From Escherichia coli (GTDB lineage Bacteria > Pseudomonadota > Gammaproteobacteria > Enterobacterales > Enterobacteriaceae), in NCBI RefSeq assembly GCF_003334255.1, contig NZ_QOWU01000282.1: a stretch of DNA of 210 nt; one strand, given 5' to 3'. Numbering within the stretch: the first letter of the stretch is position 1; every line of letters begins with the position of its first letter. The translations under genes and the position numbers were made by a program. The notes below the pieces were generated by a model. It had not been told where the DNA came from. It worked only from the letters and a program-made list of their open reading frames with translations, and ran no database searches. Of this stretch, positions 1 to 210 are shown in pieces.

Positions 1-45
1 TGCGGCAATAATGTATGTTCCGATGCTGTAAATTTCCCCGGGTAC
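1..45 (-). other. start of non-collagenous region immediately C-terminal to the triple-helix segment (continues beyond + 1)
   Basis: After GRL (+ 46-54) the Gly periodicity is lost: [15 protein letters not shown] has Gly at irregular spacing and is enriched in Ile/Tyr/Val. GC falls to about 47% over + 1-45 compared with about 67% in the repeat. The domain's identity cannot be determined from 15 residues. Confidence 0.5.
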
Positions 46-210
46 CAGCCTTCCGGTTGGCCCTTGTGGTCCCTGTGGTCCGGTTTCACCTGTCGGTCCC
101 TGTGGACCTGTCGGGCCCTGTCTTCCTGTTTCTCCCTGCAAACCTCGTGGCCCCGTTTTACCCGCAGGACCTGCCGGACCAACCGGCCCCGGAACACCCT
201 GTGCCCCCGC
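1..210 (-). CDS. collagen-like triple-helix repeat protein, internal fragment (5' and 3' ends both outside window)
   Basis: Reverse-complement frame with codons at + 208-210, 205-207, ... 1-3 is open for all 70 codons and translates to [70 protein letters not shown]. Gly is at every third position for 18 consecutive triplets, with Pro in 10 of 18 X positions. No in-frame ATG or stop is present, so both ends are truncated by the window. Product family is assigned from the Gly-X-Y signature only; no homology search was possible. Confidence 0.8.
46..210 (-). repeat. Gly-X-Y collagen-like triplet repeat region (18 complete triplets, uninterrupted; continues beyond + 210)
   Basis: Triplets in reading order are [54 protein letters not shown]. 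At the DNA level this appears as imperfect 9-bp/27-bp periodicity on the + strand, e.g. ggtccctgtgg at 68-78 and 95-105, ggcccttgtgg at 59-69 and gggccctgtc at 113-122. GC is about 67% in this segment, driven by GGN/CCN codons. Confidence 0.8.

Follow-up and report, generated by a model that had tools for sequence, protein, structure and literature searches.

A 210-nucleotide stretch of E. coli DNA (hereafter the window; G+C 62%) is free of stop codons in three reading frames, which raises the question of which of these frames are genes. We conclude that the window is almost certainly an internal piece of one ordinary minus-strand gene for a lambdoid side tail fibre, carried by an E. coli prophage or phage, and that the other stop-free frames are not genes.

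Reading frames of the window

Six-frame translation showed the window to be open over all 70 codons of plus-strand frame 1 (+1), 70 codons of minus-strand frame 1 (−1) and 69 codons of minus-strand frame 2 (−2), with one stop each in frames +2 and +3 and two in frame −3. A preliminary description of the sequence had listed the same three frames as stop-free. As 210 = 70 × 3, frame +1 is the codon-aligned antisense of frame −1. The translation in frame −1 has glycine at residues 2, 5 and so on to 53, giving 18 consecutive Gly-X-Y triplets, the last of them GRL, followed by non-collagen sequence. The repeat occupies only nt 46–210 of the window, and nt 1–45 encode part of a C-terminal tip domain, both on the minus strand. 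The preliminary description had seen a strict glycine at every third position in frame −1 only, and this was confirmed: frame +2 (window nt 2–208), the mirror of the repeat, has proline at every third residue and frequent Gly-Pro, but its glycines are not strictly periodic and it is interrupted by its stop.

At the scale of the window, three open frames are hardly beyond chance, considering that at least three were open in 5.7% of mononucleotide shuffles and in 13.6% of shuffles that preserve dinucleotides. When codons were shuffled with the protein held fixed, frame +1 stayed open in 100% of cases, because the window contains no TTA, CTA or TCA codon, and frame −2 stayed open in 20%.

The window lies within a prophage tail fibre gene

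The window is 100% identical to the coding sequence of WP_179231348.1 in NZ_CP058571.1 (strain EC2) and to that of XSB41645.1 from phage PhiR12_1. Matches were found in 36 of 5,426 complete E. coli genomes, all of them chromosomal, and in the isolated Escherichia phages PhiR12_1, PhiR12_2, PhiR12_2_star and PhiR12_4; five records deposited as Escherichia phage genomes carry the segment at 99–100% identity. Phage PhiR12_5 has only window nt 1–90 in common. At the EC2 locus (L001), the window occupies 6001–6210 inside the minus-strand CDS 5767..6975, whose 402-aa product is annotated as a “prophage tail fiber N-terminal domain-containing protein”. The register (6975 − 6210 = 765 = 3 × 255) places the annotated frame in window frame −1 and makes the whole window (nt 1–210, minus strand) amino acids 256–325; RefSeq and GenBank both annotate this frame.

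The 402-aa protein begins with a PF08400 domain (PfN, residues 1–134, full model length, E = 1.5e-42), and the best PHROG for the product is phrog_366, “tail fiber protein” (E = 5e-110). Sequence matches in the PDB are collagens and a solved N-terminal fragment of a tail fibre (9e7m; residues 1–91, E = 3e-29). Collagen repeats with PF01391 matches cover residues 136–310, as Gly-X-Y runs at 136–192 and 194–310 whose sole break, at residue 193, has the sequence GDPGGPPG, the type of break motif described for EPcl proteins (Ghosh et al, 2012; PMC3368898). Window nt 46–210 encode the last 18 triplets of this stalk (residues 256–310, minus strand), with proline at X in 10 of the 18 and glutamine or threonine at Y in 12 of the 18. 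This agrees with the published preferences of EPcl collagen domains, which favour proline in X and glutamine, threonine, lysine, arginine or alanine in Y (Table 4 of PMC3368898). Judging by what is known of the family, the fibre protein would trimerise, its Stf-type N-terminal domain would dock on the tail tip, its stalk of ~175 residues would form a collagen triple helix (shown only for EPclA and EPclB), and its small variable C-terminal tip would contact the host surface.

The gene order in EC2 is gpJ, Ail/Lom, the fibre and a DUF4376 (tfa-like) gene, and it is identical in PhiR12_1. The fibre ORFs of 402, 505 and 520 aa are all intact. In EC2, the annotation marks the adjacent DUF4376 gene as frameshifted (L001 5173–5747). 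In PhiR12_1, a two-gene insertion element lies between two “tail fibers” ORFs just downstream of the fibre gene (L002 3269–5571, PV340549.1); its genes are noted as “Transposase / Integrase” and “ATP-binding transposition helper protein”, and it is possibly IS21-like. Because the DUF4376 gene is frameshifted in one carrier and interrupted in the other, the fibre may be dispensable or non-functional in some carriers despite its intact ORF.

Several further features were noted around these genes. A protein with a YadA C-terminal domain (the anchor of trimeric autotransporters), which may be a moron-type adhesin, is encoded just downstream of the fibre genes (L001 3445–4692, L083 4436–5509, L085 1–872). 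One database protein of 147 aa (P0139) fuses the N-terminal ~57 residues of the downstream DUF4376 protein with the fibre tip, which begins there at GEIYSIGTY, and its junction lies in a G-E-(A-G-E-)I motif common to both partners; recombination or misassembly could have produced it. An Rfam scan of L001 5500–7200 on both strands found no known RNA element, the nearest being a sub-threshold CcsR1 hit (16 bits against a gathering threshold of 65, E = 0.88).

The fibre belongs to a known collagen-like family

The fibre belongs to the EPcl/Stf-like family of prophage collagen-like proteins (Ghosh et al, 2012, PLoS One 7:e37872; PMC3368898), and its pattern is ordinary and already known. In that family, collagen lengths vary in multiples of three residues, the EPclC and EPclD types have C-termini other than PfC, “frame-loss” copies are known (several of them EPclA), and expressed EPclA and EPclB are trimeric with a collagen signature in circular dichroism (PMC3368898). 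In phage phi24B, trimers of gp61 are the lateral fibres; cryo-EM resolves their N-terminal part, and AlphaFold predicts a long collagen-like shaft for the remainder (bioRxiv 10.64898/2026.04.10.717836).

The closest likeness is to the EPclC-type proteins, such as ECED1_2081 (520 aa), which have a PfN N-terminus, collagen domain(s), a C-terminus that is not PfC, three-residue length steps and frame-loss copies. The PhiR12_1 allele is likewise 520 aa long, and its collagen spans of 118 and 117 aa equal the published figures for ECED1_2081. The EC2 allele of 402 aa differs in having neither the Pf2 repeat nor the full stalk: its one collagen domain is ~175 aa long, as though an in-register deletion had fused the two collagen domains. 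No PF06820 (PfC) match and no long PCoil region (~110 aa in EPclA/B) were found, with only ~40 helical residues between PfN and the collagen domain, and on these features we file the fibre as EPclC-like rather than as EPclA or EPclB.

The fibre also resembles lambda Stf in its N-terminal PF08400 domain, in its position after J and lom, and in being followed by a putative fibre-assembly gene. The shaft of lambda Stf is not collagen-like, and the lambda tip and the Tfa chaperone are unrelated in sequence to the fibre described here; the downstream gene here encodes DUF4376, unlike lambda Tfa. In two viral contigs from IMG/VR (UViG_2579778812_000023 and UViG_3300029875_000045), the window’s short stalk and tip form a cassette on a P2 gpH-like N-terminus (MTQKYKTIITTEGRRKLAEAL...) with Pf2 repeats. 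We considered whether these were frameshifted copies and rejected this, as each is an intact fibre whose N-terminus is of another, P2 gpH-like type. Their sequences suggest module exchange between siphophage and myophage fibres.

The tip domain comprises ~92 residues (amino acids 311–402, L001 5770–6045), and window nt 1–45 (minus strand) encode its first 15 residues, in keeping with the drop in GC. The GC fraction of the tip is 0.49, compared with 0.70 for the stalk and 0.59 for PfN, and all six TTA, CTA and TCA codons of the gene fall within residues 326–379 of the tip; the tip module is compositionally foreign. Its alignment matched no Pfam family, even at E <= 10. The tip family is small and diverse, with seven divergent types found; all members stand behind Gly-X-Y stalks and carry VGSY and PGTW motifs as well as LFQR at the C-terminus. 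The EC2 tip allele had 12 matches in 1.84 billion representative proteins, among which only one (P0143) is a distant full-length relative. AlphaFold2 models of the tip had a mean pLDDT of 61.6 from seven near-identical sequences, and of 70.4 with a pTM of 0.63 from eight diverse tips; Foldseek found no match to either monomer model in the PDB at E <= 0.001. Since the tip was modelled as a monomer and the domain is probably an intertwined trimer, no fold assignment was drawn from these models. The C-terminus of the Pseudomonas phage Pa193 tail fibre gp47 (PDB 9b45) is similar over its last ~75 residues, with VGSY ... GTWR ... and LFQR at the end. As this match is weak (E = 0.06) and the predicted monomer (pLDDT 70) is without a structural match, homology to gp47 is a lead only and is not established.

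Gene signals and substitutions identify frame −1

The fibre ORF starts with GGAG-N6-ATG directly after the lom terminator hairpin. In contrast, the first starts of the shadow ORFs are TTG or GTG, and none is preceded by a motif like a Shine-Dalgarno (SD) sequence. In scans for promoters and terminators, the lom terminator alone stood out from the numbers expected from shuffles.

The window alone holds six substitution events, too few for a test of frame, and a first MAFFT alignment of its homologues reflected mosaic relationships rather than point divergence. We therefore replaced it with substitution counts from ungapped HSPs (>=88% identity) between the gene and 29 related genes, which gave 129 unique substitutions. 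Codon position 3 of frame −1 accounted for 71 of these, and the synonymous fraction in this frame was 0.53 (0.27 expected, p = 1e-10). It was 0.19 in frame +1 (0.26 expected), falling to 0.10 in the part encoding the N-terminal domain, and 0.19 in frame −2 (0.24 expected); several substitutions make stops in these two shadow frames, three of them in frame +1. Frame +2, which contains stops, also reached 0.51, which it owes only to sharing its wobble position with the true frame. The homologous HSPs (43 to 49) were all in register modulo 3. Among related E. coli fibres, 86 clusters with common termini (among P0035–P0131) fell into 17 length classes from 616 to 688 aa, each equal to 1 modulo 3. 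Stalk length therefore changes by whole Gly-X-Y triplets (9 nt).

Shadow ORFs on the plus strand had no PHROG or NCBIfam match. The frame −2 ORF (L001 5997–6629) had a weak match to phrog_10175 (function unknown; E = 4.5e-6) and another weak match to phrog_2481; wrong-frame translations of collagen-like genes may have given rise to both of these families. The preliminary description had called frame −1 and had suggested checking it by conservation at the amino-acid level in homologues and by extending the ORFs to find a plausible start, ribosome-binding site and stop. The call is borne out on both counts, by the excess of synonymous changes in frame −1 against 0.19 in the shadows and by the GGAG-N6-ATG start that only the true frame has, as well as by the existing annotation and the Pfam and PHROG matches.

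The amino-acid composition of the fibre keeps the other frames open

Considering the whole 402-codon gene, the longest stop-free runs were 325 codons in frame +1, 286 in +3, 216 in +2, 211 in −2 and 51 in −3, with listed ORFs of 308, 285, 100 and 210 aa in frames +1, +3, +2 and −2. Stop-free runs reach 200 codons or more in five of the six frames, and as no more than three frames had such runs in any of 2,000 mononucleotide shuffles, openness at the scale of the gene is far beyond chance. Within the window, frame +1 (nt 1–210, plus strand) is part of the 325-codon run, whose 308-aa ORF has a TTG start (L001 6064..6990), and frame −2 (nt 1–209, minus strand) is part of the 210-aa ORF at L001 5997..6629, which ends 2 nt beyond the window’s left edge.

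These runs are explained by the composition of the protein, because they reappear when synonymous codons are permuted, a procedure that preserves the protein and its codon usage. The probability of a run at least as long as that observed was 0.24 for frame −2, 0.47 for +2 and 0.11 for +3. Frame +1 was the exception (P = 0.0025). We considered selection as the source of this excess and rejected it, since the excess vanishes under module-specific codon usage: with the leucine and serine codon usage pooled over the PfN and collagen modules of 18 homologues, residues 1–310 lack an antisense stop with a probability of 0.55. The +1 run is longer than gene-wide permutation allows because the tip is compositionally foreign.

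The openness is a matter of arithmetic and can be traced frame by frame. Glycine (GGN) and proline (CCN) codons and their complements are unable to contribute to stops. A codon-aligned antisense stop requires a sense TTA, CTA or TCA codon, and the N-terminal and stalk modules contain none. In frame −2 (a +1 shift on the same strand) a stop requires T at codon position 2, which the usual collagen X and Y residues (proline, alanine, glutamate, lysine, glutamine, threonine and arginine) do not provide. Frame −3 (a +2 shift) is alone in being rich in stops, as GGT followed by a lysine, glutamate or aspartate codon creates TAA or TGA. Counts over 5,052 collagen codons, drawn from 27 distinct homologues, gave 1 stop in frame −2, 5 in +1, 5 in +3, 25 in +2 and 220 in −3. 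Beyond the collagen spans, stops interrupt frame +1 at sites that vary between homologues. T at codon position 2 makes up 3% of stalk codons compared with 22–24% in the flanking domains, and frame −2 is open because X and Y residues almost never have it. Stops return with the AT-richer, hydrophobic tip module, exactly at the window’s left edge. The +1 run starts at window nt 1, directly after the antisense stop at sense codon CTA-326, and both window shadow frames end at that edge, at the start of the tip module. The frame +2 mirror of the PhiR12_1 collagen is a 242-aa ORF (L002 6308..7036), which might pass for a collagen-like protein although it lies on the wrong strand.

The shadow frames are a compositional by-product of the Gly-X-Y repeat and not genes. 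The preliminary description had already put the openness down to the triplet repeat, and synonymous permutation and the stop counts per frame agree with it. Its more specific account, that the complements of such triplets rarely form stops, holds for the plus-strand frames but not for frame −2, which lies on the same strand as the gene and depends on the scarcity of T at position 2.

Wrong-frame products in protein databases

We searched a database of 5.8 billion protein clusters with the shadow ORFs (E <= 1e-3) and the true product (E <= 1e-20). The frame +1 ORF matched 2 clusters (P0001 and P0002, the latter from a 937-nt contig), the frame −2 ORF matched 12, and the true product matched at least 1,926. 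Eight of the 12 frame −2 sequences were read, comprising three chimeras of broken copies and five others. Two chimeras (P0009 and P0011) have a PfN domain and then frame −2 sequence. The third (P0007), which stands in NCBI and UniRef as a “putative tail fiber protein from prophage”, runs through frames −2 and −3 and then enters the genuine tip. Four others (P0003, P0004, P0008 and P0013) lie purely in frame −2, with a longest contig of < ~2 kb, and one frame −2 call (P0012) comes from contigs of up to 9.9 kb. In the source genomes of chimeras the gene is split into two calls or three (three at L083). In one of them (L084) the frame shifts inside the window’s own sequence, and J and lom are also split there. 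An indel in the stalk meets no early stop, which leads gene callers to emit long wrong-frame or chimeric products.

Neither of the two loci that were fully read (EC2 and PhiR12_1) has an overlapping gene call. The preliminary description had warned that such sequences commonly produce spurious overlapping or antisense calls. The hazard exists, but “commonly” overstates it, given that the antisense frame accounts for 2 clusters and frame −2 for 12, compared with at least 1,926 for the true frame, and the frame −2 sequences that were read are chimeras or calls on short contigs (mostly < ~2 kb), not overlapping calls on intact genes. The opposite error also occurs. NZ_AP045180.1 carries an intact 505-aa ORF with the architecture PfN-Col-Pf2-Col-tip (L085 2267–3784; 4468625–4470142), which is represented in RefSeq by two partial pseudogene fragments only, leaving the window stretch without a feature. 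Shadow ORFs are well documented as a class, for example in AntiFam (PMC9710616). The spurious proteins treated by AntiFam and Spurio are likewise long ORFs made by composition in other frames or on the other strand and occasionally deposited (PMC9710616); here, unlike there, the chimera that follows an indel on the same strand outnumbers the call on the opposite strand (12 vs 2 clusters).

Alternative explanations

Two alternatives would give a shadow frame a function. That the frame +1 ORF (308 aa in EC2) is a genuine antisense gene overlapping the fibre gene is extremely improbable. Its 325-codon run does exceed gene-wide synonymous permutation, public data contain two gene-finder calls of it (P0001 and P0002), and a sigma-70-like site lies upstream on the plus strand (L001 5870–5897). 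However, a run this long is to be expected from the codon usage of PfN and the collagen domain, a single promoter-like site is the chance level in shuffles (0.8 +/- 0.9), and the frame shows no constraint in its substitutions, three of which create stops. The ORF is also cut at varying sites in homologues (at sense codons 6, 70, 234–262 and 313), begins with TTG and no SD sequence, matches no PHROG or NCBIfam family, and would encode a low-complexity product rich in tryptophan, cysteine, arginine and phenylalanine. It is likewise very unlikely that frame −2 is used biologically, through slippage in the G/C runs of the stalk or programmed frameshifting that would yield tip-less fibres, an alternative basic C-terminus and phase variation of host range. 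Public assemblies do contain products that begin in the true frame and then pass into frame −2 (P0009 and P0011, and L084 within the window), several “frame-loss” copies of EPclA have been listed (Ghosh et al, 2012; PMC3368898), and the frame is open through the entire stalk in 27 homologues. Yet this openness is fully reproduced by synonymous-codon permutation, and the frame has no excess of synonymous changes. Those chimeras that were examined stem from an assembly in which further genes are broken (L084), a gene split into three calls (L083) or short contigs, so sequencing error or the decay of cryptic prophages suffices for them, and their shift points are not the same. We give equally little credence to the specific proposal that indels at short G/C runs of the stalk form a reversible switch to tip-less fibres, as opposed to truncation, that serves as phase variation of host range or adsorption in lambdoid prophages.

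The remaining alternative, that the segment is a remnant of a decaying cryptic prophage in which no frame is functional in the source genome, is somewhat less remote and still unlikely. It would fit the frameshifted DUF4376 gene of EC2, the insertion element of PhiR12_1 and the split copies in some genomes, and laboratory lambda tolerates a frameshifted stf gene. On the other side, the ORFs of 402, 505 and 520 aa are intact, the segment is 99–100% identical in the five Escherichia phage genome records, and frame −1 carries a signal of purifying selection. We retain the reading of the window as part of one ordinary fibre gene on the minus strand.

Implications

The value of this finding is mainly practical, and it has no bearing on an open biological question. 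For collagen-like tail-fibre genes, one sequencing indel yields not an early stop but a long and plausible wrong-frame or chimeric protein; such a product has already been deposited in NCBI and UniRef (P0007), and a PHROG family of unknown function may contain others. Conversely, pipelines driven by homology can under-annotate intact copies, as in NZ_AP045180.1. For genes of this kind, glycine periodicity together with the 9-nt register of indels provides a quick check during curation.
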